Below the pieces are notes generated by a model, which saw only the letters and a list, made by a program, of their open reading frames with translations, made no database searches and was not told the origin of the DNA. Below, one piece after another: positions 3,411-49,212 of a stretch of DNA of 64,000 nucleotides. Within the stretch, counting starts at the first letter, position 1; every line of letters begins with the position of its first letter. The translations under genes and the position numbers were made by a program. The DNA lies in the NCBI GenBank assembly GCA_038087875.1, contig CM075989.1, positions 20,896,001-20,960,000 of the forward strand, written 5' to 3'. The DNA is from Malacoraja senta. Taxonomy: Eukaryota.

Positions 3411-3550
3411 GGGAAGTCTGTTGAATTCACAATCCCCATGAAATAGCTGTAACATACAGTATATTCATTTTAATTTGGCCACTCCAGACATATAATATGA
3501 TATTAACTCGAGCTTTGTTTTTGTTGTTGATAAAAGGGTGCTGATATGTA

Positions 3551-4686
3551 TCTATATAACCAAAAGTCTCATCTTGACCACTTCCTGTCTGCGCTGTATA
3601 TTGATTTTAGAAATAACGCTACCCTATATCGCTATGATTTTCGGCCATCTTACTCATAGTCCCCCTCCGCTGAGGCAGCCCCGAGGATTTTTCCGATCGA
3701 TGAAAAATAAAAAAGTTATGAGTGTTTAAAAAATCTTGAGATCAGCTGATTGGTCATCTCGCCTGTCAATCACCATGATGAAGGTAACGCCCCTTCCGGG
3801 GGGCAGGACTATAAACCCCGGATGCCTGGACGTGAGTCAGTCACTCTGGAAGATCGCGAGGGAGAGGCTACAACTGTGATTCTAAGCTATGAATCAACGG
3901 AACCGTGAGTCTGCAATGTACTTGCAATAAATGATTTGTTAGCCCTTAATGACAATGCAATGACTTGTTTGGCCTGCCCTGCCTGTGCTTGAAACTGCAA
4001 TGCAAAATTGAAAATGAAATGACGATGCCATGAGTTGTTTGGCCTGTCCTGCCTGTGCTTGAAACTGCAATGCAAAATTGGAAATGAAATGACAATGCCA
4101 TGAGTTGTTTGGCCTGCCCTTGAAATGGATTGACTTGACTTGACATGAAATGGATTGACTTGACTTGACATGAAATGGATTGACTTGACTTGATTTGACT
4201 TAAGCCATTTAGAACGGACACGAGGAAACACTTTTTCTCACAGAGAGTTGTGAGTCTGTGGAATTCTCTGCTCAGAAGGCGGTGGAGGCCGGTTCTCTGG
4301 ATATTTCAAGAGAGAGCTAGATAGGGCTCTTAAAGATAGCAGAGTCAGGGGATATGGGGAGAATGCAGGAACGGGGTACTAATTGGGGATGATCAGCCAT
4401 GATCACATTGAATCTCCTGCATCTATAGTCTATTGTCTATTGACTTGAAATGGATTGACTTGATTTGACTTGAAATTGATTGACTTGACTTGAAATGGAT
4501 TGAAATTGATTGTTGGCCCTGCACTCACTGTGCTTGACTTGACTTGACCCACAACACCCATGCTAGCGCTCCAGAAAGCCCCCCCCACTGGCCACCAATA
4601 TTGGAATTGGTGGAGAGGTGGAATATTGCATTGGGGACCAGCCTTCCCATGTGAACCTGGGTCCCAACGGGTCCCACTTAGTCTAG
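3551..4686 (+). mobile_element. Non-autonomous Helitron (copy A), containing a CR1 fragment and (TGACT)n arrays
   Basis: A|TCTATATAACC 5' end; imperfect subterminal hairpin TGGGTCCCAACGGGTCCCA; CTAG|T 3' end; no TSD. Confidence 0.8.
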
Positions 4687-6454
4687 TATCAATTAAAGGT
4701 TAAGAGTAGAACGCTGCAGATGCTGAATTACAAAATGGGACACCAACTGCAGGAGTAACTCAGCGGGTCAAGCAGCATCTCTGGAGAACATGGATAGGTG
4801 AGGTTTAGAGTCAGGACCCTTATTCAGAATTATTTTGGTGGAAAGGTCCAGACACAAAACATCATCTATCCCTGTTCCCCAGAGATGCTGCCTGCCCTAA
4901 AATGCTGGAGTAACTCAGCAGGACAGGCAGCATCTCTGGAGAGAAGGAATGGGTGACATTTCAGGTCAAGACCATCTCAGTCCAGCATTTTGTGTCTATC
5001 TTAGGTTTAAACCCGCATCTGCAATTTCTTCCTTCACATGCTGCTTGATCTTGTGAGTCACTCCAGCACTCTGTGTCCTTTTTTTTTCAATTAATAATTA
5101 AGCTACATTTATCAACAAATTTTTTATCCATCAATATGCCCCAGTTTTGATATCACCAATCAACTGCTAATTTAATAAATAATTCAAAAAAAAATTCAAA
5201 TTTTTGAGTTAGTGAGGCAGTTAGCGTTAAGGGGCAGCACGGTGACGCAGCAGTAGAGTTGCGGCCTTGCAGCGCCAGAGACCAGAGTTCGATCCTGACT
5301 ACAGGCGCTACTTGCAGGTTCTCCCCGTGACCTGCGTGGGTTTTCTCCGGTTGCTCTGGTTTCCTCCCACACTCCAAAGACGTACGGGTTTGTAGTTTAA
5401 TTGGCTTTAATTGTAAAATTGTATCTAGTGTGTAGGATAATCAACTGATTAAGTTAATCTCTTCCCCTGATAATCAAGATATTACAAACTTATCTCTGGA
5501 CGGAATCTCCACAGACTCAGCACCCTGAGAATAATTAACAGTGAACCGTCAATATAACACACCAAAGGGAAGCAAACTGCCAGACTAATTGCCACAGGGA
5601 ATCCAGAACACACTGCGCATGATACGCCCAATATCTTGTCAGAACTGTACGGCTGAGAGAGTTTTCAATGCATGGAGCTGTATTAGTGTGATGCTACCCT
5701 CTCATTCCTCCCAAACCACAGCCCATAGTGTCAGGCAATGTGTGTGGGAAGGAACTGCAGATGCTGGTTTACACCAAAGATGGACACAGATCAGTCTGAA
5801 GAAGGGTCGCGATTCAACGCTGGCGGCCCTCGCCAAAGGGCCCCAGGGACTCCGCGATGTCGGTCAGCGCCGCCCGCGCTGGGAGCTCCTACGACAACCT
5901 ACGTCAGCAAAAATTGTCGGCAACAAATTTTCAACATGTTGAAAATTTTGTGGCAGTCGCCTGTAGTCACCCAAAAAATCACCTAAGTAGGACAGGCCCA
6001 TAAGTGTTAACAATGATTGAGCCTCTGGGATGGAGACTGGTTGAAGCTGTAGGAGATGAGGGGTGATGATCATATTGAGGCATCACCTCCAGGCACTGTT
6101 AGATGTGTGGCAAAGATTAGTGCACTTTTCATGTTCATGTTCATTGTCATAAGTTTGTTCGTTCGTTCGTTCGTTGGTTCCGATTAAGGCGCTGTGTACA
6201 CGGCAGCCAGCTAACAGTCGCTTGTCTTTTTTCCTTTTCTCACTTTGAATTTAATTTTAATTTCAAGTTGTCATCTACCTTGTTGTGTGCTGTGACTGTT
6301 AGCAGAACAATTTCCCTCCAGGGGATGAGTAAAGTTCTATCGTATCGTACATGCATGATTACGGTGAGACAGGTGCAGTAAAAAATCGTCCTCGCGGCAG
6401 CTCCTCAGGCAGATAGACTCAGACAAACGACAAAACACAAATTATTGCGTATAT

Positions 6455-6880
6455 GTGTCGGAAGGAACTGCAGATGCTGGTTTAAACCGAAGAGAGGCAC
6501 AAAAAGCTGGAGTAACTCAGCGGGTCAAGAAACTCAGCATCTCCGGAAAAAAGGAATAGGTGATGTTTTGGGTCGAGACCCTTCTTCAGACTGAAAGTCA
6601 GCAGAAAGGGGAATGAGAGATATAGACGGTGATATAGAGAAATATAGAACAAATTAATGAAAGATAGGCAAAAAAGTGACAATGATAAAGGAGACAGACC
6701 ATTGTTAGCTGGGGTCTAGGTGAAAACAAGTTACTGACAATGAGATTCAACAAGACGACTTTAAACTAGTACAACAACGGGTGGGGGAGGGACAGAGAGA
6801 GAGGATGCGGGTTACTTGAAGTTGGAGAAATCAATATTCATACTGCTGGGTTATAAGCTGCCAAGCAAAATATGAGGTGC
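6455..6880 (-). mobile_element. Penelope-like element 3' end (degenerate ORF C-terminus, UTR, terminal repeat)
   Basis: Minus strand HLIFxLGSLxPSSMNIDFSNFK* (6880-6812), then a pyrimidine-rich UTR and the CTGAAGAAGGGTCTCGACCC terminal module. Confidence 0.75.
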
Positions 6881-7444
6881 TGGGTTGAGTTTTCTTGAGT
6901 TTAGCTTTTGTTGCTTTTCACTGTACCTTGTAAACGTGACAATCAACTAAACTCGACTAAACTCAATAACTTGATAATAACATTCAAAACATTCAATTAA
7001 ACCCCATGTATAAATGTATTGCTGGCTGGGAAGGTGATTTCTTACCTGCTGCAGCTTTACATGCCAGATAATGGCAATAACACTGCAAATAAATATACAA
7101 TAATCAAGAACACAACAGATTACCAACAGTATTGGGTAACCCGACCATTATACTCTAAACTATAGCATGTAATGCAAGCAATACAAAGTTCACAGTGGGA
7201 TTCATTCCCAGAGATGTGCTGCATCAGCTGTCACAGTCATCTGGAGACTGACTCCTCCTCGCTCACACAGTTCAAGGGGACAGAGTCCACGGTGCAAGGA
7301 GATGAACGACAGCTTGAGATAATATTTACCAGTACTCTTTACATCCACTTTTTCATTTGTCTCCTTATTAGGCCATTCAGCCCATCAAATCCATGCTGGC
7401 TCCTGTCAGGGGAATCCCATCAGTCACCCTGTATACTGTAACTT

Positions 7445-18799: not shown

Positions 18800-20500
18800 A
18801 TCACGGATTACAATGGGAAAAACAGGTGCACTGTTCAGCATACCGCTTCGCTCCCGGACGAGCTTAACACCTTCTATGCCCGGTTCGATGCAGACAACAC
18901 ATCACCCACCATGAGTCCACAGGTGTGCAGGGGGACTACCTCACTGACCCTACAAACGGCAGACGTGAGGCGGTCCTTCAAAAAAGGTCAATGATCGCAA
19001 AGCTCCAGGGCCGGATGGTATTCCAGGGCGGGCTCTCAGGGCGTGCGCTGATCAACTGGCGGAGGTGTTCACCAACATCTTCAACCTCTCCCTGAGTCAG
19101 TCTGTGGTTCCCACCCCCTTCAAAGCATCCATCATTGTTCCTGTTCCAAAGAAACCAGTACTCTCCTGTTTAAATGATTGCCGTCCTGTCGCACTGACAT
19201 CAGTCATCATGAAGTGCCTCGAGCGACTAGTCAAAACTCACATCTGCTCCTCGCTCCCTGACACCTTGGACCCTCTTCAGTTTGTGTATAGTCCCAACAG
19301 GGCCACGGACGATGACATCACCATGGCAACTCACACTGCTCTCACCCACCTGGACAAAGGGAATACATATGTGAGAATGCTCTTCATTGACTACAGCTCA
19401 GCATTCAATACTATCATTCCCTTAAAACTCGTCCCCAAGCTCCTAGATCTTGGACTGGAGACCTCCATCTGTGGCTGGATATTCGACTTCCTGACGGGCA
19501 GGCCCCAGGTGGTGAGAATTGGCAGCCACACCTCTTCCTCACTGATCCTCAACACAGGCGCACCACTGGGCTGTGTGCTCAGTCCTCTCCTGTACTCCCT
19601 GTTCACGCACGACTGTACTGCTAAGCACAGCTCCAACATCATCTTAAAGTTTGCTGACGATACGACCATCCTGGGCCTCATCACAGACAATAATGAGACG
19701 GCCTACAGAGAGGAGGTAAAGGCACTAAACAGCTGGTGCCAGCAAAATAACCTCTCTCTCAGTGTCAGCAAAACTAAAGAGATGATCGTGGACTACAGGA
19801 GACAACAGGGGAGTGGACACCTCCCCATCCACATCGGCGATGCTGAGGTTGAAAGGGTCAGCAGCTTCAAGTTCCTCGGTGTGCACATCACTGAGGACCT
19901 CTCCTGGACACTGCACACGGACACAATAACAAAGAAAGCCCGCCAGCGGCTCTTTTTCCTGAGAAGACTGAGGAGGTTTGGCATGGACGCCAGCATCCTC
20001 TCAAACTTCTACAGTTGCACCATCGAGAGTCTGCTGACGGGCTGCATCACAGTCTGGTACGGGAACTGTTCTGCCCACAGCCGCCAATCACTACACAGAG
20101 TGGTGATGGCGGCACAGCAAATCACTGGCAACTGTCACCCAGACGTTCAGGACATTTTCCACCGGCTGTGCCTGCAGAAGGCACACAGCATCATCAAGGA
20201 CCACAGCCACCCAGCACATAGACTGTTCTCCTTGTTACCGTCAGGCAGACGATACAGGAGCAGGGCTGCACGTGCCACCAGACTTAAGAACAGTTTTCAT
20301 CATCATGCCATCAGGCTTCTGAACTCATAAACACATCATATATGTTGATTATTTTATTTATTATTGTCTTTTACCTACCAATGTCACTTTTATCTTATCT
20401 TTTTTTACCTTAATTTTATCCTTGTAATATCATTGCTGAGGTGACCCGTTGTATTGTCAAACACATTTCATTGTACCGTTGATCCTGTGTTAACCTACAT
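18800..20500 (+). mobile_element. 5'-truncated Rex1/Babar-type LINE with an open 421-aa RT ORF (19065-20330)
   Basis: [45 protein letters not shown] and KFADDTT motifs; AT-rich 3' tail. Confidence 0.88.
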
Positions 20501-20855: not shown

Positions 20856-21120
20856 TATATGACAAATAAAACTGAACTGAACTGAACTGCCTCAAAAAGG
20901 CAGCCAGCATCATCAAAGACCCACACCATCCTGGCCACACACTCATTGCACCATTGCCATTGGGAAGAAGGTACAGGAGCCTGAAAAATGTAACGTCCAG
21001 GTTCAGGAACAGCTTCTTCCCTACAGCCATCAGGCTATTAAACACGACAATCTCATATAAGCTCTGAACTACAATAGACTATTATTATTATTATTGCACT
21101 ATTTTGTTTGTTTTTTGAGT

Positions 21121-22940
21121 AACAATTGGGTAACTAACTAATTATATATAAATATATTGTGCGTATGTGTATTGCTTGTCGGAGAGGGATTTCCTCGGGC
21201 TGCTAGTCGATGCAGAAAAATCGATCGGACTTCCGTTCCCGTTTAAAATTTTTTTTTTTTTTAAATAAATCGCTGGACAATTTATTAGTTGGATTAAAGT
21301 AAAAATCGACTTCGAACGCCCTCAACGCCTTCAACGTGATGGATCGTAACATCAGGACAGAACAAAGGGTTAGTCGTTTATTTCACATATAATCTTGCTT
21401 CTTGGGGTGGCTTTAGTCTAATTTTACAAAGCGAAAATTTTATTTAGACCCCAAACGATTCGGCCATGTCTTGCCTGCCGATATGGGGTTAAAGCTCACG
21501 GCAACGGCAACGTTCCAGTCGATCGCCTTACAGAAACACCCACTCGCAAGATGATTAAAATTCACTTTTTCTTTGGACAATCATGTCATAACAGCATCTA
21601 AATCATCCATATTTTGTGTAATTGTCTATTCATAATCAATATTTTTATACTAAATATCCACATTGTGGAAAAAGTAATAATTTTGATTATATTGTAGAGT
21701 GGATGTTTCTAGATTAATTTATGGGATAATAATTTATTAAATTCCTTCCATTTGGCATATAAGTTCATGACAGTGAGATTTAAAAATAATGTTATATTGT
21801 GTGAATGGGATTAGTTTGTTATTTGGATACTTAGGCTATTTAAAAAATTTAGCCTTTTCTTAAGAAATGGATAGATGTTTAGGTCTAGTAATTGAATTTA
21901 GATTAATTTAATTGATTAGATGAATTTAATTGATTTGATGAAACTGATGAATATGAATTTTTTGTTGGGTATTTACTATTTGTTTTAGCGTTTAATTTTT
22001 TTTTTATCATTTCTACCTTTTTTCTAAAACTGAAAATAATAAATTATTTCTGTTAATGCTGTTCAGTGTTTTATTTCCTTTACATTTTAAACAGATGTCT
22101 CTGAAGAAGAAATGCAAAATTGTCAATCCAAATGCCCAGCAAAAGAGACTGATTTAGACAGCATTCGCAGAGATTATCTGAATTTGGACTACTCCAAATG
22201 TGATGATCTACAGGACATTCTTAATGGGAAAGTAGTGGGCAGAAAGGCATGTCATGCGTGGTTTGAAGAGCAAAAACTTGTAGTTTACAATGCCAAAATT
22301 GAAAAGTTGAGGAAAAACAAGGTGTACAGAGTTGCTTATTGGTTACAATCTGAGGAGTATGATGATGCTACTGTTTATGATATGCCAATGTACCAGCTAG
22401 CAACTGATCTTCTCCATAAAGACTTGGTCTATTGCTAGAAATTGTAATTTATTTACCTATCTGTTACGGACTTACAGCATATAATACAATAATATTAAAG
22501 TTCTGATCTTGAGAATATCACATTTTTGAATTTTCAAGGCAGTCTGGGTGTTTATTACTATTTCCGACACAACGGTCAATTTTGTAATTAGCTACAATTA
22601 GGTAACTAACTAATTATATGCTTTAATTTCAGGTCATCCAAGAAAGATGTTTCATATTCGTTTCAGAATGCTTCAATCTATAATAACTGAAAATTTCATT
22701 CAGTTCTCTTAATTTTTAAGAAAGTTATGGGCTTTTGACTGTCCTCGATCGCAGCTTTTGTGTTAAGTCAATGGAAAAGCAATAGGGAACAAGATGCTAA
22801 TTTCCAAGTATGAAAATGGCCATAGCTTTTTTAATACTGAAGATATGGAATTAGGTATCAAATTAAATTTATTTTTATGCTTTATCTGATGGGATAAATT
22901 GCAGACTTGATTTTTAAAATCTCAAAATTATGTAACATTG
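21121..22940 (+). mobile_element. Unclassified AT-rich transposon-like insert nested in a Rex LINE 3' tail
   Basis: Interrupts a Rex tail that resumes at ~22942 (compare intact tail 51360-51660); CpG-rich left part; repeated GGTAACTAACTAATTATAT. Boundaries approximate. Confidence 0.5.
22095..22438 (+). CDS. Orphan terminal exon/ORF in the insert; Tudor/Spin-Ssty-like by eye
   Basis: Polypyrimidine tract + AAACAG acceptor ending 22094; open frame to TAG 22438 in very AT-rich DNA; ATTAAA at 22494-99. Confidence 0.5.
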
Positions 22941-22980
22941 CTATATTATGTTTACATGTTCTGTTGTGCTGCAGCAATTA

Positions 22981-23202
22981 AAGGGCCTGTCCCACTTGGC
23001 GATTTTTTTTCGGTGACTGCTGGCGTCAAAAGATTTTGAACATTTCAAAATCCAGCGGCGACAAAAAAAATGATGAGACACTTGAAAAAACACCGCGCGT
23101 CATACGTCATCACGGCCACGCCACGCCGTGAATTTTTTAGTGACCTGATACGTCAGTCAATGATGACGGCAGTCGCCGAATCGCCAAGTGGGACAGGCCC
23201 TT
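22981..23202. mobile_element. MITE with 24-bp TIRs, PIF/Harbinger-like
   Basis: AAGGGCCTGTCCCACTTGGCGATT ... AATCGCCAAGTGGGACAGGCCCTT; TTA on both sides; related right end near 5985-6003. Confidence 0.8.
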
Positions 23203-26200
23203 TACGAATTTCATTGTTCTATCTGGGACATATGACAATAAAACACTCTTGCTTCTTGACTTTGTACAGTTTAGTTTAGAAATACATTGCGGAAACAGGC
23301 CCTCTGACCCAGCGGTTCCGCGCCGACCAATGATCCCGGTACACTAATAATGTCCTACACACACGAGGGACAATTTACGATCCTTACCGAGGCAAAATAA
23401 CCTACAAAACCTGCACGTCTTTGGAGTGTGGGAGGAAACCGGAGCACCTGTGGAGAACCCATGCGGTCACTGGGAGAACGTACAAACTCCGTACAGGCAG
23501 CAGCACCCGTGGTCAGGATCGAACCTGGGCCTCTGGTGCTGTAAGGCAGCAACTCTACCGCTGCGCCACCATGCCGACCCTAAACACCTCTTTTGGAATT
23601 TCTGAGCTTTTCGTCATATGTCAAAATATTTACCCTAATTGTTCTTCTTTACAGGAAAGAGGATGATTCATCTGAAATTTACTGTACGGAGACCGCTGCT
23701 CATTGAGTTCAGCTTAAAATTTAATGGCACATTACTGCAACATCAATACATTTTGCAACCGGGCCACTGAATATGCAAATATTGAAAACACTCGCGGGCA
23801 GTTTAATGGGAATGTCTGTTTCTTGGAATGACAGGGATGATCACCTCCTGTTTGCACACTTGCTGAGGCAGCAGCAACAACGGATATACTGAGGTACGAC
23901 ATCAACTCAGCAAGTGAAAGAAATGTCACAGTGAGGCAGTCAGACTGCTGAGTATTTGGTCATTCAGATTTTCTTCAGACTGATGAAGTTCGCCAACCCG
24001 ATATATTGCCAGCTGGGCCTGTATGTCGACCACTTCAAAGGCTTTTGAAGCCCAGAAATAGATCAAAGCAAATGTTTAGCCCAAACTAACATGGTGTCAG
24101 AGGTACACAAAAATGCTGGAGAAACTCAGCGGGTGCAGCAGCATCTATGGAGCGAAGGAAATAGGTAACGTTTCGGGCTGAGTTTCTCCAGCATTTTTGT
24201 GTACCTTCGATTTTCCAGCATCTGCAGTTCCTTCTTTAACACATGGTGTCAGAGGTTATGGGGAGAAGGCAGGAGAGTGGTGTTAGGAGGGAGAGATAGA
24301 TCAGCCATGTTTGAATGGCGGAGTGGACTTGATGGGCTGAATGGCCTAATTCTATTCCTATCCCTTATGACCTTAAAGGTTGACCTGTGAAATGAACCAA
24401 GGGCGGCCCAGGGGTGCACTGGTAGAGTTGGTGCCTCCCACCGCCAAGGGACATGGGTTTGATCCTGACCTTGGGTGCTGTCAGTGTGGAGTTTGCACGT
24501 TCTTCCTGTGACCGCTCTGGTTTCCTTCCACATCCCAAAGACGTGCAGGTTGGTAGGTTAATTGACCACTGTCAATTCCCCCTAGTGTGCAGGAAATGGA
24601 TGAGAAAGTGGGATATTGTAGAACGAGTGCGAATGGGTGATCGGTGGTCAGTGTGGACTCGGTGGGCCGAAGGGCCTCTTTCCATGCTGTACCTCTGAAC
24701 TAAACTGTCAAGATCAATGGAAGGTAGTCATGAAGTGCTGGAGTAACTCAGCGAGTCAGGCAGCATCTCTGGAGAGAAGGAATAAGTGATGTTTCAGGTC
24801 AGAACCCTTCTTCAGACTGAAAGATAGAGGTGAGGTGTGTGGGGGGGGGGGGGGGGGTACTGGAGGCGAGAAAAGACTAGAACGAATCAGGGCAGGCAAC
24901 AGATGACCTTAGAAAGGGTGGAGTCCATAATGGCCCATTGTTGGCTGGAGATGATGTGTTAATGAGAGTGATACAACAAAGTAAATAGTGGAATGAGTGG
25001 GATGACTAGGATGGGGGAGAGAATACATGATTTCTTCAAATTAGCTAAATCAACATTCGATATTCAATGGAAACATTATTTGCTGTTGTCTATTTTACAA
25101 ATAAATCAACTCAAACTGGCAGTCTATTTCAGTATTTTCAGAAAACCTTAAATCACGGCAATTTGATTGTAAACATGGAGTGAGCGCGTTTATGATCTTG
25201 ACCATACTCTTCATACTGCAAGTACCTTGTACCTTGTGGTCATCACTTCCGAAGAGTCCACCAGGAACTATACTGGAAGTTGGACAATTTATACTGGACA
25301 ATGTTTACATTTATCAAGCCAATTAACCTACAAGTGTGAGGTATTGAATTTTGGGAGGTTGAATGTAATGGGAGAGTGGCACGACCCCTAACAGCATTGA
25401 TGTGCAGAGGGATCTTGGAGTCCAAGTTCATAGCTCACTGAAGGTAGCAGCACAAGTAGATAAGATGGTGAAGAAGGTATATGGGGTGCTTGCCTTTATT
25501 GCTAAGGCGATTGAGTATAAGATTTGTAGGTTAATTAGTTTCTGCAAATTGTAAATTGTTCCTAGTGTGTAGGACAGTGCTACTTTATGGAGCGATCGCT
25601 GGTCAGCATGGACTCGCTGGGCCGAAGGGCCTGTTTCCACTCTGTATCTCTAAAGTCTAAAGTCTAAAGAATCGGGAAGGCATGATGCAGCTCCGTCAAA
25701 CTTTGGTTAGGCCACATTTGGAGTATTGCATGCAGTTCTGGTCGCCCCATTGCAGGAAGGATGTGGAGGATTTGGAGGGGGGGAGGGGGGTGCAGAGTAG
25801 GTTTATCAGAATGCTGCCTGTGATAGAGGGGTTCAGCTACAGGGAGAGGTTGGGTAAACTTGGATTGTTTTCGATGGAACATCGGAGGTTGAGGGGAGAT
25901 TTGACAGAAGTATACAAAATTATGAGCGGAACCAATATGGTTGACAGTCAGAACCTTTTTCCCAGGGTGGAATTGTCCAACACTAGAGGGCATAGCTTGT
26001 AAAGTGAGAGGGGGGAGGTTTATTGGAGATGTTTGGGGCAAGTTTTTTTACACAGTGAGTGGTGGGGGCCTGGAACACATTGAGAAAGGGGGTGGTGGAG
26101 GCAGATACGATAGTGGTGTTTAATGGGTTTTTAGATAAGCACCTGGAAGTGCAAGGAATAGGGAGATATGGATCATGAACAGGCAGATGAGATCAGTTCA

Positions 26201-28554: not shown

Positions 28555-30670
28555 AAGTTCAAGTTCAAGTGAGTTTATTGTCATGTGTCCCTGATAGGAC
28601 AATGAAATTCTTGCTTTGCTTCAGCACAACAGAACATAGAAGGCATTGACTACAAAACAGATCAGTGTGTCCATATATCATTATATAAATATATACACAC
28701 ATGAATAAATAAACTGATAAAGTGCAAATAACAGATAATGGGCTATTAATATTCATAGTTTTGTCCGAGCCAAGTTTAATAGCCTGATGGCTGTGGGGAA
28801 GTAGTTATTCCTGAACCTGGTCGTTGCAGTCTTCAGGCTCCTGTACCTTCTACCTGAAGGTAGCAGGGAGATGAGTGTGTGGCCAGGATGGTGTGGGTCC
28901 TTGATGATACTGCCAGCTTTTTTGAGGCAGCGACTGTGATAGATCCCCTCGATGGAAGGGAGGTCAGAGCCGATGATGGACTGGGCAGTGTTAACTACTC
29001 TTTGTAGTCTTTTCCTCTCCAGGGCGCTCAAGTTGCCGAACCAAGCCACGATGCAACCGGTCAGCATGCTCTCTACTGTGCACCTGTAGAAGTTAGAGAG
29101 AGTCCTCCTTGACATACCGACTCTCCGTAATCTTCTCAGGAAGTAGAGGCGCTGATGTGCATTCTTAATAGTAGCATCAGTGTTCTCGGACCAGGAAAGA
29201 TCTTCAGAGATGTGCACGCCGAGGAATTTAAAGCTCTTGACCCTTTGAACCATTGACCCATTGATATAAATGGGACTGTGGGTTCCCATCCTACTCCTTC
29301 CAAAGTCCACAATCAGTTCCTTGGTTTTGCTGGTGTTGAGCCAGGTTATTGTGCTGGCACCATTTGGTCAATCGGTCAATCTCACTTCTATACTCTGACT
29401 CGTCCCCATCAGTGATACGTCCCACAACAGTGGTGTCATCAGCGAACTTGATGATGGGGTTCGCACTATGACCGGCTACGCAGTCATGAGTATAGAGTGA
29501 GTACAGCAGGGGGCTGAGCACGCAGCCTTGAGGTGCTCCCGTGCTGATTGTTGTCGAGTCTGACACATTTCCACCAATACGAACAGACTGTGGTCTGAGA
29601 ATGAGGAAGTCGAGGATCCAATTGCAGAGAGATGCGCAGAGACCCAGTTCTGCGAGTTTGGTAACCAGCTTGGAGGGGATGATTGTATTAAATGCCGAGC
29701 TGTAATCGATGAATAACAGCCTGACATATGAGTTTTTGTTGTCCTAGTGGTCCAGAGCGGAGTGGAGAGCCAGCGAGATCGCATCCACCGTTGATCTGTT
29801 GTGGCGGTAAGCGAACTGCAGTGGGTCCAGGTTTTTGTCGAGGTAGGAGTTGATTTGCACCATGATCAACCTCTCAAAGCACTTCATCACCGCAGGCGTT
29901 AGTGCCACAGGTCGATAGTCATTGAGGCACGTCACCTTGCTCTTCTTGGGCACTGGTATGATTGATGCCCTTTTGAAGCAGTTGGGAACCTCAGACCTCA
30001 GAAGTGAGCGGTTGAAAATGTCCGTTAAAACCTCCAGCCAGTTGGTCCGCACAGGTTTTAGAACACGACCAGGTATACCATCAGGTCCAGGCGCTTTTCG
30101 AGGGTTCACCCTTCTGAAGAATTTCCTGACGTCGGCCTCTGTGACTGAGACTGAAATACCATCACAGCGAATGGGAGCTCGGGAAGGCACATCGGTGTTC
30201 TCCATATCAAAGCGTGCGTAAAACGCATTGAGCTCATCAGGGAGTGATGTTTCGCCGACATTCGAGCTGCCTCCTGATTTTGCCTTGTAGGAGGTGATTG
30301 CATTCAGGCCCCGCCACAGCTGCCGAACATCTGTCTCATCCTCCAGTTTGGAGCAGAATTCCCTTTTGGCCTTTTTGATGGCCTTACCAAGGTCGTATCT
30401 GGACTTCTTGTAGACCACTGTATCATCAGACATGGTCTTCAGAAGAGTGCGGATCTAAAAGTTCATCCAAGGTTTCTGATTGGGAAACACTCGGAAGGTT
30501 TTTGTAGGGATGCAGTCCTCTACACATTTCTTAATGAAGTCTGTAACGACTGTGGCGTATTCGTTCAAGTCCGTTGCCGGGTCCTTGAACATTGCCCAGT
30601 CGACAGACTCCAAACAGTCCTGTAGTTGTTCCTCTGCCCCCGCCGACCAGCTCTGCACTGTCCTCACCTC
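28555..30670 (-). mobile_element. Rex1/Babar-type LINE, 5'-truncated and frameshifted
   Basis: ORF pieces [56 protein letters not shown]; 3' tail with short repeats. Confidence 0.88.
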
Positions 30671-44000: not shown

Positions 44001-47000
44001 CATCCTAAACACCAATTGCAAGTTAATCTATAAATATTGCTAAAAAGTATTGGATTAGGTATGTTATGAACTGCTTTACAGACTAATTGCCAGAAAATCT
44101 GGCTGCAAAGTATTAATTCAAATTCAACATAGCCTCTTAAGAGTTTCCTCAAAACAAATTAAACCAATGACACCCATTTATGTGCGTTAAGATTGCAATA
44201 TTTACATTTTGCGGAGCAATGTCAGTACTTCACAGCTAATTAGTTATTTTAGTACGTGAAGCAGCCCAGCATGGGAACAGGCCCTTCGGCCGCCCACAAT
44301 GTCTGCGTCGAACATGATCAATTTTATCTGCTTCAACATAATCCATTCTTCTTCATTCCCTGCATATCCATGTGCCTATCCAAAAGTCTCTTAAATGCTA
44401 CTATCATATTTGCCTCCACCAACACCCCTGGCAGCATATTCCAAGCACTTGCCACCAAAAAAAAACTTGCCCTGCACATCTACTTTAAATTGTGGCCCTC
44501 TCACTTTAAAGTTGTGCCCTCTAATAGTTGATATTTTCCAATTTGGGTAAAAGGTTCTGCATACCCGCAACTTCCAGTATTTCAGATTTTGTGGACTAAA
44601 CTGTAGTATCTGCAAGTTGGAGATTTATATTAATTCTTAAACCTGAATGTACAATTATAAAGCCAAACCTTTAGAATCAGATCAGTAATTAATAATTGCA
44701 AAATCTATTCACTTTTGAGTTTATCACAATTGATTTTTGTTTTAGGTTGATCTACTTGCAAGACAACAGCACAGATGTTCTAAAATCCTGTTGACAGCTG
44801 TTTAAATGTTTCCAACAATGTAATACAAAAACAAATTAACTTACCAAGAAATATGGTGCATTAACATCAATTTGACTTGTTACAGAGAATTCCCTCTTCA
44901 CAACTTGACTTGTGCCACAAGGTCGCTCAGTATTGCTGTCACCCAATACTTCACACTGCCATATTTTCCACTGAAGGATGTGACCAATGGCCTGTTTTAG
45001 ACAATTATAAACTACATTGTAGAATCTTTGCTGACATTTGTTTTTGTGAATTTAAAAATCACTTTTTTTGAATAGATCACTTACCCTTGTGGAAGATGAA
45101 ACTGAATGGAAACTCATGTTTTCCAGGTTGTAATGTGAAGTATCCTTCATCATCTGTTAAGAAAGAACAAAGTTGTACAACATATCAATAAAGTGAAAGG
45201 GCATTTGCAAGAAATCAAAAACAAACATTATTTATATACAAACTGGGAGATAGTAATTTGAAAAGCCAAATTAATGTATTTATTGAGGGGGGGGGGTTGG
45301 GGGAGAGAGAGAAAGAGGATAGTAAGGACATAATTTAGTCATGGTGCTTCAGTCACAATAAGGGCAAGTGCAAAGATTTGCTCAACTCACTGCAATCTTT
45401 CTTCAAAAAAAAGTCATCTATTTTAATTAGATTTTCCTTCCCCCACAACTAACTAGCTTATTTCTGAACACTTCAACCTGTGTCTCTGCTTTATTGACCA
45501 GATCCATGTAGATTGGGTAATTGCTTTACAGAATAACTCAACAGAATTGATTAAATTTCAATATACTTGCTTTTCAATATACCTGCACGAAATTCAGCAG
45601 AATGTTTTAAAATTGAGTTGAGATTATAGAACTCAGTCCAAAGGAAGATCTCAAGCTTCCCCACCTGACCTCTACGTTGGCCTCATGTTCCAAATCCACT
45701 TAAAAGTTCCCAACTGTAGTTTGGGAAACATCTCATTTTCCAATTTGACATGTTACATTTAACATAGCCTGAATTTAACATTCAGAAAGCCAGGTTTTCC
45801 AGGTTACGTCAGTATTGGCTAATTCTGCTGAAAACTTATTGTACTGAAACATCAGGTGTTTCCCCCCCATCATAGATACTGCCTGTCCTGCTGAATATTT
45901 CTATCATTGTTATTATTTGAGATTTAGAGCATCTACACTTGGCTTTTCAATGATACATTTCTGTTTCTGTGACAGATAGTGTTCACTATTTTTCAAACAT
46001 TTTCAAAGTTACCCTGGGAGTTGCAACAAATATTTCCCAAACTTGCACGTAGAAAGCTGCAAATCAATGGTCCACTGATTCACATTCTGAACTATAGAGT
46101 AGCTTATTGAAATGGAAATAAACTGCAAAATATTGTGCCAAAGGTAAAAGCACTGAGTGCCTTTTGTATGGAACAAATGATGACAGTGGTTGTTGAGGAA
46201 GAGGGAAATTAAGCACAATTCCTTTCTTGAAAAGAGATCTCTGAAAATTCTGTAGGTTCTTTTTATCTGGTTAAAGAAGTGTAACTAGGACATGAGGCAC
46301 ACAAGCTTCATTAGTTAGCATTGTCTCACTAGTTAATATGACTTTCTTCAAAGTACTCATTCAGCAGGGGGTAGCAGATGCATGCTCTAATCTAATATAG
46401 CCTGCACATTGATACTGACAGGCTTCTGGTGGTGGTCAGGGTGAGGGTGTCAGACTTTTTAGAGAGTATGGTATTGATAGAGACTATCCCCCCCACCCTC
46501 CCAAAAAATATGAAGCGGAGATTCAACACAATTACCTTTACATAAAGTGATCTCTCAAAAAACTAATACTTCTGTGCCTTATAAGTTCTACGAATCACAT
46601 GTGTCTCATTAGTCTCTGTGGTTAATATTACTTTCCCCAAAGTACTGATTCAGCAGGAAGAGAGCAGATCCATGTTCTGGTTTAATATAGCCTGAACATG
46701 GATATGGACACCGTGGGGAGGCTGGTGAGAGAAGGGGGGGAGGGAAAGATAGAGGGGAGGAGAGGAGAGGTGAAGTGAGGAGGGGGGTGGGGGGGAGACA
46801 AAAGGATGGAGGGACAGGAGGGGGATAGAGAGAAGATAGGATAATGAGGGAATGGGTGATGGGGGGGGTGGCAGGTTGGGGGGGGGGTGGCAGGTTGGGG
46901 GGGGTGGGTGGCAGGTTGGGGAGGGGGGTGGGCAGGTTGGGCGGTGGCAGGTTGGGTGGGTGGGTGGCAGGTTGGGGAGGGGGGTGGGTGGCAGGTTGGG

Positions 47001-47982
47001 GAGGGGGGTGGGTGGCAGGTTGGGGAGGGGGGTGGGTGGCAGGTTGGGGAGGGGGTGGGTGGCAGGTTGGGATGGGGGTGGGTGGCAGGTTGGGGATGGG
47101 GGTGGGTGGCAGGTTGGGGAGGGGGTGGGTGGCAGGTTGGGGAGGGTGGCAGGTTGGGGAGGGGGGTGGGTGGCAGGTTGGGGAGGGGGTGGGTGGCAGG
47201 TTGGGGAGGGGGGTGGGTGGCAGGTTGGGGAGGGGGGTGGGTGGCAGGTTGGGGAGGGTGGCAGGTTGGGGATGGGGGTGGGTGGCAGGTTGGGGAGGGG
47301 GGTGGGTGGCAGGTTGGGGAGGGGGTGGGTGGCAGGTTGGGGATGGGGGTGGGTGGCAGGTTGGGGAGGGGGTGGGTGGCAGGTTGGGGAGGGTGGCAGG
47401 TTGGGGAAGGGGGTGGGTGGCAGGTTGGGGAGGGTGGCAGGTTGGGGAGGGGGTGGGTGGCAGGTTGGGGAGGGGGGTGGGTGGCAGGTTGGGGAGGGGG
47501 TGGGTGGCAGGTTGGGGAGGGGGTGGGTGGCAGGTTGGGGAGGGGGGTGGGTGGCAGGTTGGGGAGGGGGTGGGTGGCAGGTTGGGGAGGGGGGTGGGTG
47601 GCAGGTTGGGGAGGGGGGTGGGTGGCAGGTTGGGGAGGGGGGTGGGTGGCAGGTTGGGGGGGGGGGGTGGGTGGCAGGTTGGGGGGGTGGGTGGCAGGTT
47701 GGACGGTGGGGCAGCTCCCTCCCCCGTACCTGCGGCCCGCCGCACCACCTGCCGCTGCTGCAGGTACACCACCTCATCGCGGTGCCGCGCCGCCGCTGTT
47801 GCCAGGCCGTCGCCCCCCCAGTGGACGCGGGCACAGCCCTTGGCCTCCAGCCGCAGCTGGATGACAGGCAGCCGGACGCCGGTCTCCAGCAGCAGCTGCC
47901 CCGACACCCGCTCCCCGCTCGAGTAGCTGCTCAGATCCCGGCCGTCCAGCACGATGCCGAAACTCTTCAGCCGGACGCCCAT
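41019..47982 (-). CDS. ARRDC4: Arrestin domain-containing protein 4 (alpha-arrestin), 8 coding exons, ~402 aa if two 1-bp deletions are corrected
   Basis: Spliced translation gives MGVRLKSFGIVL...LQPGKHEFPFSF...PLVTSFSGKYGSVKY...GCWLFTSGPISLSAKIER...GEAIPIYAEFENCSSRLIMPKAAIFQTQTYLA...LPEQPEAPPNYADVVSEE...IQEFRFQPPPVYSEVDP, closely matching recalled vertebrate ARRDC4. All introns are GT-AG; two PPxY motifs. Confidence 0.9.
41234..41388 (-). CDS. ARRDC4: ARRDC4 exon 7 (155 nt), both PPxY motifs
   Basis: APPNYADVVSEEDLARQF...FAYIQEFRFQPPPVYSE; AG/GT borders. Confidence 0.92.
41670..42430 (+). mobile_element. Old degenerate Penelope-like GIY-YIG fragment in ARRDC4 intron 6
   Basis: QCGLHYKVETKHRL...HFNF...GLLHY resembles GIY-YIG 'CGLLYIGETKRRL'; degenerate terminal modules flank it. 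Confidence 0.55.
42985..43147 (-). CDS. ARRDC4: ARRDC4 exon 6 (163 nt)
   Basis: VYVHIPGSKKLMLELPIVIGTIPYNGFGSRTSSISGHFGLDMSWLQLALPEQPE; AG/GT borders. Confidence 0.93.
43348..43604 (-). CDS. ARRDC4: ARRDC4 exon 5 (257 nt)
   Basis: GEAIPIYAEFENCSSRLIMPKAAIFQTQTYL...IIRVEYSLA|GTAAGT; within ORF 43324..43629. Confidence 0.93.
43690..43792 (-). CDS. ARRDC4: ARRDC4 exon 4 (103 nt)
   Basis: ttttcag|ASVSKSIEKTIGCWLFTSGPISLSAKIERSGFCN G|GTAAGT. Confidence 0.92.
44845..44991 (-). CDS. ARRDC4: ARRDC4 exon 3 (147 nt as assembled; apparent 1-bp deletion)
   Basis: Acceptor aaacag, donor GTAAGT; PLVTSFSGKYGSVKYWVTAIL / ERPCGTSQVVKREFSVTSQIDVNAPYFL in two frames. Confidence 0.88.
45085..45153 (-). CDS. 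ARRDC4: ARRDC4 exon 2 (69 nt as assembled; apparent 1-bp deletion)
   Basis: Acceptor ttaacag, donor GTAAGT; DDEGYFTLQPGKHEFPFSF, then the frame slips (HLPQG lies in another frame). Confidence 0.88.
46866..47702. repeat. G-rich minisatellite in ARRDC4 intron 1, unit ~GGGTGGCAGGTTGGGGAGGGGGT
   Basis: About 35-40 tandem units of ~17-24 bp, directly visible. Confidence 0.97.
47730..47982 (-). CDS. ARRDC4: ARRDC4 coding exon 1 (253 nt)
   Basis: Kozak gccATGG; arrestin-N start (YSSGERVSGQLLLE...LEAKGCARVHW); donor G|GTACGG, phase 1. Confidence 0.88.
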
Positions 47983-48029
47983 GGCCGGGGTGGGGGGCGA
48001 GGGCCCCGCATAGACCACCGCCCACACCG

Positions 48030-48340
48030 GCTCCTCTCCTCCTTCCCTCCTTCCCTCCTTCTCTCTCTCTCCCACTTCTCACTCTTGACCTTTGCTCCTT
48101 CTCTTTCCCTCTTTCTTCTCTCCCTCTCCTCCTTCCCCCCTTGTTCTCCTCCTCTCCCTCCTTCTCTTTCTCTTCTTCTCTCATTCACACCTCCCCACCT
48201 CCCCACATTCTCCTCTGTCCTCCTTCGCCTTCTCCCCTTCCCTTCTCTTCCTTTCCCTTCTCTTTATCTCCCCACCCCTTCCTCTTTCTCCTTTTGTCTT
48301 CTCCCCCTTCACCCCTCCTTCACCCCTTCTTTACCGCCCT
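48030..48340. repeat. Polypyrimidine/polypurine low-complexity tract
   Basis: Almost pure C/T on the plus strand. Confidence 0.9.
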
Positions 48341-48367
48341 GTGGTGAGGTGACTGCAGGCAGGCAGC

Positions 48368-48369
<2 letters not shown>

Positions 48370-48400
<31 letters not shown>
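48370..48400. repeat. (GT)n microsatellite followed by poly-G
   Basis: Directly visible. Confidence 0.95.
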
Positions 48401-48403
<3 letters not shown>

Positions 48404-48660
48404 GGGGGGGGGGGGCGGGGAAGCAGCGTGTCGGGTCGAGCTGCGCGGGCGCGGCGCGGCTGATCGGAGCGTGATCACCAATCAGCGGCGGGGACCCGCA
48501 CGTGTACAGCGCCGCCATTGGCGGGCCGCAGGGCAACCCTCCGCACACCGGACCAATGGCGAGCCCGCTCCTTCATGTGCATGGGCCCGGCCAGCCGCTG
48601 GGCCGCCGTTACCCCGGCAACCGCCACTGGGCGCCGCCATTGCTCCCGCCTCTATATATA
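48400..48660 (-). promoter_or_regulatory. CpG-rich ARRDC4 promoter core: three CCAAT boxes, E-box, RFX X-box
   Basis: CCAAT 48478-82, ATTGG 48517-21, CCAAT 48553-57; CACGTG 48499-504; GTTACCCCGGCAAC 48608-21; high CpG density directly upstream of exon 1. Confidence 0.75.
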
Positions 48661-48661
48661 C

Positions 48662-48673
48662 CCAGACAGACAG

Positions 48674-48730
<57 letters not shown>

Positions 48731-49212
48731 GAGAGACACAGACACAGACACAGACACAGACACACAGACACACAGACACACAGACACACAGACAGACAGA
48801 CAGACAGACAGACACACACACACAGCCAAACAGACAGACACACACACACACAGACAGACAGACAGACACACACAGAGACAGACACACACACAGACACACA
48901 CTCAGACCGACACACACAGACAGGCGCACACGCGCACACAGACAGACATATATACACACACGCACTGACACGTACACACACACAGACACACATATATACA
49001 CACAGACAGACAGACACACAAACAGACAGGCGCACACAGACAGGCGCACACGCACACACAGACAGACATACATACACACACACACACACACTGACACGTA
49101 CACACACACACATATATACACACACAGACAGACAGACACACAAACAGACAGACACATAGACAGACACACACACTGACATGTACACACACAGACACACACA
49201 CACAGACACACA
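48662..49212. repeat. Compound (CA)n/(CAGA)n microsatellite
   Basis: Directly visible. Confidence 0.95.

Follow-up and report, generated by a model that had tools for sequence, protein, structure and literature searches.

A deleted hAT-like transposon in Malacoraja senta retains part of a transposase gene whose C-terminal domain is predicted to resemble a Spindlin Tudor repeat

The window analysed here is a stretch of 64,000 nucleotides from Malacoraja senta (GenBank assembly GCA_038087875.1, contig CM075989.1, positions 20,896,001 to 20,960,000 of the forward strand), and coordinates below are positions within that stretch, on its forward strand unless stated otherwise. The 3′ end and tail of a LINE lie at 20887–21167, matching two other LINE 3′ ends in the window at 85–88%. 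This tail is interrupted by a DNA transposon at 21168–22943 and resumes at 22944; the insert has a GC content of 32%, against about 45% in its surroundings, and so the AT-rich insert nested in a LINE tail that the initial annotation described is indeed there. Within it, a polypyrimidine tract and AG acceptor (22060–22094) are directly followed by a start codon, an arrangement shared with the parent element described below. The acceptor ending at 22094 had been recognised from the start, as had the ATTAAA at 22494–22499, a candidate polyadenylation signal that also has a counterpart in the parent. Between them is a frame open from 22091 to 22438, which encodes 115 residues from stop to stop, or 108 counted from an ATG at 22112. 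The length of this frame is only modest evidence for coding, given that 20 of 1000 base shuffles of the insert contained a frame at least as long. Its peptide, however, has 185 homologous proteins at E ≤ 0.001 and is identical at 89 of 99 positions to the end of an intact transposase. Thus we conclude that the frame derives from coding sequence.

Searching the genome (1.94 Gb) with the DNA of 21150–22980 returned 5,312 candidates, 40 of which were scored; these matched at 83–100% identity, and the long matches among them are 86–95% identical to the window copy. Twenty loci define a non-autonomous element of approximately 1.9 kb (mostly about 1.88 kb) with 16-base inverted repeats, TAG...CTA. 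A 7-bp target duplication flanks 15 of the 16 non-autonomous copies for which both ends were found, while an 8-bp duplication flanks none of the 16. The preferred target site is a C, five A/T-rich bases and a G, as judged from 48 right flanks, some of which are counted twice. About 105 bases are missing from the left end of the window copy, among them the left inverted repeat and the left target duplication. The copy keeps the right inverted repeat (22928–22943, 16 bases, ending in CTA), followed at 22944–22950 by what other copies lead us to expect is the right copy of the 7-bp duplication. Having lost its left end, the window copy can presumably no longer be moved. A 26-base direct repeat (96%) occurs both just outside the left edge of the element, at 21122–21147, and inside its 3′ part, at 22594–22619; it is possibly a remnant from the loss of the left end.

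The intact parent of this family was found by using the closest long homologue of the peptide to search the genome. An uninterrupted frame of 978 codons is present at 11 of the 20 loci examined, and seven of the eight regions fetched are complete elements of 4,266–4,274 bases (∼4.27 kb), with 16-bp terminal inverted repeats. Both ends were found for seven complete parents, and all seven have 7-bp duplications. The expectation that the feature would prove to be transposon-borne, multi-copy and linked to a transposase, and that full-length elements with inverted repeats and target duplications could be found, is therefore borne out. The seven complete parents are 98.9–99.9% identical to one another, which suggests that the parent family has moved recently. 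Two loci, L029 and L035, each carry an additional left end from this family inside or next to a parent copy, suggesting nested or adjacent insertions.

The parent gene has a single coding exon of 978 codons, with its start codon directly behind the acceptor. All 19 full-length homologues listed start at, or close to, one shared basic stretch of the N-terminus, which leaves no coding sequence upstream. From the sequence we infer that an intron in the 5′ untranslated region (parent bases 288–825) would be removed at this acceptor. The 5′ region of the parent offers a single donor-like site, at base 288, preceded by no ATG other than in the inverted repeat; one copy (L010) has a donor-like site at base 291. 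The pattern is not matched at the corresponding place of the window copy, where the likely donor of its non-coding first exon (21366–21374), assigned by position relative to the parent only, looks degraded. Among the joints listed from contigs of six presumed RNA sequencing runs and one run of unknown kind, none is a GT..AG joint into the acceptor, a result that speaks neither for nor against splicing. Apart from the intron, we regard the anatomy of the element as close to certain.

Compared with the parent, the window copy has lost 2,595 bases of the transposase gene and gained two at the junction (22139–22142), which shifts the frame. What remains is 45 coding bases, the two extra bases and the last 98 codons with their stop (22142–22438), the latter 94% identical to the parent in DNA. 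Translation from the native start codon (22095–22157) would run through 15 N-terminal codons of the transposase and stop after 20 residues. The frame that had been called intact is thus open and does contain the quoted peptide, but it is a chimera, opening with 17 residues that come from out-of-frame reading of the transposase N-terminus and from the junction bases; the 108-residue frame is the +1 frame, reachable only from the second ATG at 22112. An identical deletion junction is found in 20 of 20 copies examined and in contigs of three sequencing runs from two organisms (X1, X2 and X4), with a near-identical one in a fourth run (X11). Identity between the window copy and the parent is 94% over the last 802 bases and 75–78% in the 5′ part, so the derivative represents either a related subfamily or a recombinant. 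The contigs also hold other internal-deletion derivatives of the family (joints 3603–6836, 3524–6461 and 3569–6983 on the parent locus L041:2932–7204), for some of which the summed contig depth is greater at the ends. Shorter miniature forms are thus probably abundant.

When modelled by AlphaFold2 with 81 sequences, the full 978-residue protein has a mean pLDDT of 84.9. The predicted layout comprises an RNase H-like DDE core with a helical insertion, a long helix of some 58 residues (825–882) and a Tudor barrel. Foldseek returned 14 matches for the full protein at E ≤ 0.001, and of the 13 listed, 11 are Hermes (best 7.8e-7) and two are the P element (best 1.5e-4), although the Hermes alignments have low TM-scores (0.17–0.25 by query) and high rmsd. 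Residues D429, D506, E784, C531 and H534 are retained in 80–81 of the 81 aligned proteins. On the basis of this conservation and of their strand positions in the model, D429, D506 and E784 would form the DDE triad, and C531-x-x-H534 the CxxH motif. No Pfam family fits the transposase, and none of nine long proteins scanned matches the BED finger, the hAT dimerisation domain or THAP. Residues 12–117 of the parent protein are confidently modelled as a helical domain in which a GH motif recurs; Pfam offers no match for this domain, which occupies the place taken by the BED finger in hAT proteins. Named homologues come from Hydra, limpets and other molluscs, a priapulid, echinoderms, a brachiopod, a sea spider, a sponge and bony fish; some of these end before the Tudor domain.

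Our classification of the transposase, assigned from the Foldseek comparison of the predicted fold alone, is that it is probably hAT-like but not a canonical hAT. It shares with Hermes (6dwz, 4d1q, 8sjd, 8edg and 2bw3), its best full-protein match, short terminal inverted repeats, a DDE core, the CxxH motif and a large helical insertion. It differs from Hermes and from hAT elements generally in its length of 978 residues, in lacking a BED or dimerisation match in Pfam, and in carrying a long C-terminal helix and a Tudor domain. The 8-bp duplication of canonical hAT elements is replaced by one of 7 bp, in 15 of 16 derivative and seven of seven parent copies. The hATw group of Repbase has 7-bp target duplications. 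According to the accessible text of PMC12730594, hAT duplications are usually of 8 bp and subgroups with 5, 6 and 7 bp have been named; entries for hAT elements with 7-bp duplications, and the names hATw, hATx and hATm, appear in what is available of PMC4455052, PMC8721813, PMC12905397 and PMC13465017. The hATw group of Repbase and Dfam overlaps our element in its taxa, being listed for Hydra and amphioxus in the accessible parts of PMC13465017 and PMC12905397, and many of the homologues found here are from Hydra. The fungal hAT7 also has 7-bp duplications, but the available text of PMC12730594 places it in fungi and clusters it with Ac/Tam3; its likeness to our element is one of duplication length only. 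In the accessible portions of the literature consulted, a Tudor domain is not mentioned for hATw or hAT7, and our likening of the element to hATw is by description rather than by sequence.

The THAP domain is an N-terminal feature of P elements. The P-element superfamily is a further candidate for kinship, given that 7-bp duplications are mentioned in the accessible literature on Galileo and that P transposase is the second-best fold match; the match to it is, however, weaker than that to Hermes, and THAP is the domain for which the nine proteins gave no hit.

The initial annotation had likened the peptide, by eye, to a spindlin Tudor domain, and proposed Pfam and AlphaFold/Foldseek as checks. 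The structural check agrees with it. AlphaFold2 models the 115-residue frame with a mean pLDDT of 86, exceeding 90 over the domain (residues 45–115, encoded at 22223–22435; roughly 886–978 in the parent) and 95 over the barrel, and predicts a Tudor barrel for which the best structural matches are Spindlins. The best Foldseek row for the domain is Spindlin1 (E 0.01, probability 1.00, rmsd 2.7 over 77 columns), with no match at E ≤ 0.001. A wide search with VIA, covering 48,161 chains, gave equal scores of Z 7.1 to Spindlin-4 and the plant RDM15 Tudor domain, a level that the tool calls common; TraI domains are within 0.5 of the top, and no chain reaches Z 8. A second VIA search, over the 981 chains that Foldseek had aligned, places Spindlin-family entries in the top 24 of the 50 listed (Z 7.5–8.6), the best being Z 8.6 with an rmsd of 2.2 over 66 residues of Spindlin repeat 2.

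The Pfam check, in contrast, yields nothing. The Spin-Ssty model (PF02513) does not match the peptide, is not among the 25 of 43 families listed for 53 homologues, and when run over this genome scores above its cut-off for the host Spindlin only. No significant Pfam match was obtained for the peptide, two close homologues or nine long proteins, and the 53 homologues gave faint hits to Agenet (6/53) and to the PTM/DIR17 Tudor domain (4/53). Searches of PDB sequences with the peptide and two alignments gave no informative hit. In the ESM Atlas there was no usable match for the peptide, and one homologue led to a low-confidence model and unnamed clusters.

The domain is widespread among the homologues. 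It is present in 87 of the 120 listed, from cnidarians to fish, and in 81 it lies no more than 15 residues from the C-terminus. The remaining 33 comprise 32 proteins that terminate ahead of it and one fused model. As far as these sequences allow us to judge, it is thus kept in every listed homologue that reaches the C-terminus. Mean identity among homologues is 44% for the domain and 52% for the core, against 24% for the linker. With Spindlin1-4 (PF02513; 7e9m, 4mzh, 5jsg and 4uy4) it shares a barrel followed by a helix and a last strand, a VG..H.W start, three cage aromatics in register and a conserved L..D....DL tail. Unlike Spindlins, in which three tandem repeats make up a stand-alone protein, it is a single C-terminal domain on a transposase; it also has approximately nine additional residues after strand 3, falls under the Pfam cut-off and is not acidic overall. 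Our conclusion is that the domain is built like one Spindlin repeat, but is not itself a Spindlin. The resemblance to MYQL..D....DL that first drew attention is in part incidental, since M100, Y101 and Q102 vary among homologues; L103, D106, D111 and L112, on the other hand, are conserved.

The cages of Spindlin are given in the accessible text of PMC3967050 as F141/W151/Y170/Y177 and W62/W72/Y91/Y98. In the hhalign alignments, W57, Y66 and Y83 of the domain align with W62/W72/Y91 and with F141/W151/Y170, and these positions carry an aromatic residue in 96, 98 and 98% of 186 domains, respectively. For Y177, the tyrosine in fourth place, hhalign gives P99 rather than Y96 as the partner; from the strand pattern, Y96, which is aromatic in 89%, may be the fourth cage residue, completing a candidate cage of W57, Y66, Y83 and Y96 (W920, Y929, Y946 and F959 in the parent). 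The H3-binding surface of Spindlin1 is described as acidic in what is available of the same paper (PMC3967050), whereas the domain has 11 D+E and 11 K+R, and hence no net acidic excess. A complex prediction of the domain with an unmodified H3 tail (36 residues, with the alignment unused by the tool) scored 0.02, against a mark of 0.34, and speaks neither for nor against binding.

Taking these results together, the reading that we favour on balance is that the feature is a deleted, out-of-frame remnant of a hAT-like transposase, and that in the parent the Spindlin-like C-terminal domain tethers the transposase to methylated histone tails. Since the domain is predicted to fold like Spindlin, the transposase would be likely to read methylated chromatin. 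In outline, a 5′ untranslated intron would be spliced to the acceptor ahead of the 978-codon exon; the transposase so made would bind the inverted repeats, excise parent and derivative elements alike and reinsert them with a 7-bp stagger. An aromatic cage at the end of the long helix would meanwhile bind methyl-lysine or methyl-arginine on a nucleosome near the target, and this binding would bias or enable target capture. As to the reading of methyl-histones by the domain, considered separately, we lean slightly in its favour.

The insertion sites bear on which mark might be read. CpG-island-like right flanks are not enriched, being found for 2 of 20 derivative copies, 2 of 22 parent copies and 6 of 60 control windows, the latter taken from 20 hand-picked sites (p 0.14–0.66). 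This result argues against strong targeting of promoters (H3K4me3) among surviving insertions. It is compatible with other marks, and promoter insertions are removed by selection.

Of the alternatives to this reading, the one that survives best is that the Tudor barrel is real but binds something other than a histone mark: DNA, another subunit of the transposase, or a methylated non-histone protein of the host, such as one that partners Spindlin or the piRNA pathway, whereby it could blunt silencing. We consider this unlikely, yet deserving of attention. The SH3-like barrels of Tn7 TnsB (Z 6.9) and TraI (Z 6.8) follow close behind the Spindlins in the structural search, and the domain has a basic loop at residues 72–77 and no acidic excess. 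The flanks, moreover, show none of the CpG-island bias just discussed, and SPIN1 silences young transposons in mouse stem cells, according to the accessible part of 10.64898/2026.08.20.746118, so that a mimic of Spindlin could help a transposon. Against this, the aromatics at the cage positions are the best-conserved residues, and the three best families in the VIA searches (Spindlins, RDM15 and BAHCC1) have all been solved with methyl-histone peptides.

A second alternative is that small SH3-like barrels have converged, and that the domain is a structural module unrelated to Spindlin. The lack of a Pfam hit, a sequence identity to Spindlins of 16–19% and the top Z of 7.1 in the wide VIA search are what would be seen in that case, as is a profile search of PDB sequences in which Spindlins appear only at E 0.23–0.63. 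Profiles that do not depend on the model say otherwise. In 265 proteins scanned, 196 domains were long enough to use; filtering for redundancy at 80% left 186, which we compared with repeats from 120 Spindlins. The hhalign probability is 95% for Spindlin repeat 1, 14% for repeat 2, 0.1% for repeat 3 and 86% for the pooled repeats, and a 60-row subset gives 92% for repeat 1 and 81% for the pooled repeats. By comparison, 60 column shuffles do not exceed 6% (repeat 1) or 18% (pooled), and the reversed profile gives 0.9%. With a database size of 20,000, an HMM of the domain detects 27 of 120 Spindlins at E < 0.01, and Spindlins are the only Tudor proteins among the 11 hits of the PDB search. We therefore think convergence improbable and hold with good confidence that the domain is true kin of the Tudor/Spindlin family. 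What had been recognised by eye as a spindlin-like domain is accordingly upheld by predicted structure and by profile comparison, though not by Pfam.

It might also be proposed that the deletion derivative itself encodes a protein, namely the 108-residue Tudor-only product from the ATG at 22112, acting as a repressor or decoy that aids the spread of the family. The junction is common to 20 of 20 copies, the Tudor part is free of codon gaps and most frames are open; two distinct stops are observed where four or five are expected, and the coding part has accumulated substitutions at a rate of 1.7%, compared with 2.5% for the 3′ non-coding part. However, these 20 copies are the best DNA matches, a sample biased toward gap-free, intact-looking copies. 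Distinct changes from the majority sequence of the 20 number 12 synonymous, 66 missense and two stop; pN/pS is 1.1–1.8 depending on weighting, with no synonymous excess (p 0.07–0.47), and H55, W57 and W84 are mutated in some copies. Furthermore, the 108-residue frame is preceded by the native ATG, which is in another frame, and the donor looks degraded in the window copy. No purifying selection is evident on the remnant, and in our view a working Tudor-only product is very improbable. The window copy makes no working protein and is probably dead, an ordinary decayed derivative.

The initial annotation took the frame for the final exon of a spliced gene with several exons, the earlier ones apparently being missing at this locus. 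That suggestion is favoured by the strong acceptor directly before the frame but can be dismissed with near certainty, given that in the parent the same acceptor opens the uninterrupted 978-codon frame, that it is the middle of this single exon which has been deleted, that the skipped stretch is bounded by GC..TG rather than GT..AG and is missing from genomic DNA, and that homologues start at the same place.

In the literature searched, which did not extend to Repbase Reports or most subscription journals, we came upon no DNA transposase described as carrying a Tudor or Spindlin domain. Matches to ‘Tudor’ in PMC3212892, PMC7386202 and PMC13548663 were rejected as an author's name. The closest precedents are Gypsy-10_Ec32 of Ectocarpus, called the first reported transposable element with a Tudor domain in the accessible text of PMC12477816 (2025), and fusions of Chromo and PHD domains to transposons, including a hAT–chromodomain fusion in a sponge, as given in the available part of 10.1101/2021.11.30.470311. 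As far as those texts go, these share with our element a mobile-element enzyme bearing a C-terminal reader of the royal family, but they are retrotransposons or taxon-restricted fusions, and the readers are others. Here, by contrast, we have a DNA transposase lineage that extends across several animal phyla, and a Spindlin-type domain that Pfam misses. The hAT-like transposase with a Spindlin-type C-terminal domain is apparently a real and undescribed variant, a matter on which the supplement of 10.1101/2021.11.30.470311, with its list of reader–transposon fusions, may bear.

Reader domains are already known on the integrases of retrotransposons, and a Spindlin-type domain would extend them to cut-and-paste elements; found across phyla, it would also provide a candidate relative for the Spin/Ssty repeat. 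The boldest form of the idea is that an animal transposase lineage has carried a working Spindlin-type reader of methyl-histones, choosing chromatin targets, since before cnidarians and bilaterians split, and that the repeats of host Spindlin derive from the transposase domain by triplication; taken as a whole, we find this rather doubtful. A shared origin of Spindlin and the transposase domain, in whichever direction, would be of interest because SPIN1 silences young transposons, as the accessible part of the study cited above has it. Because the genome holds near-identical intact copies (11 of 20 loci), reader-guided insertion could be tested directly, with and without the domain.

As for the host Spindlin, its repeat 2 is 92–95% identical to four cartilaginous-fish proteins (among the best 120 of 327 hits). 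The gene occurs twice in the assembly, on contigs C1 and C1031, with identical scores, and the second is probably an assembly duplicate.

Several other features were observed in the window. TTAA-like flanks point to elements of the Kolobok or piggyBac type. In the same LINE tail, adjoining the transposon, is a small non-coding element (22979–23204) with perfect 26-base inverted repeats, after which the LINE resumes; it is flanked by TTAA-like bases, suggesting a miniature element of one of these types. An open LINE reverse-transcriptase frame of 453 codons lies at 18969–20330 (RVT_1, E 1.5e-26), and further decayed LINE copies are found on the minus strand at approximately 28750–30450. Finally, 47740–47982 on the minus strand, in a GC-rich island at approximately 46600–49200, is likely the first coding exon of an arrestin-domain host gene (Pfam Arrestin_N, E 7.9e-5, just under the cut-off); the transposon is on the opposite strand, about 25 kb downstream of this exon.
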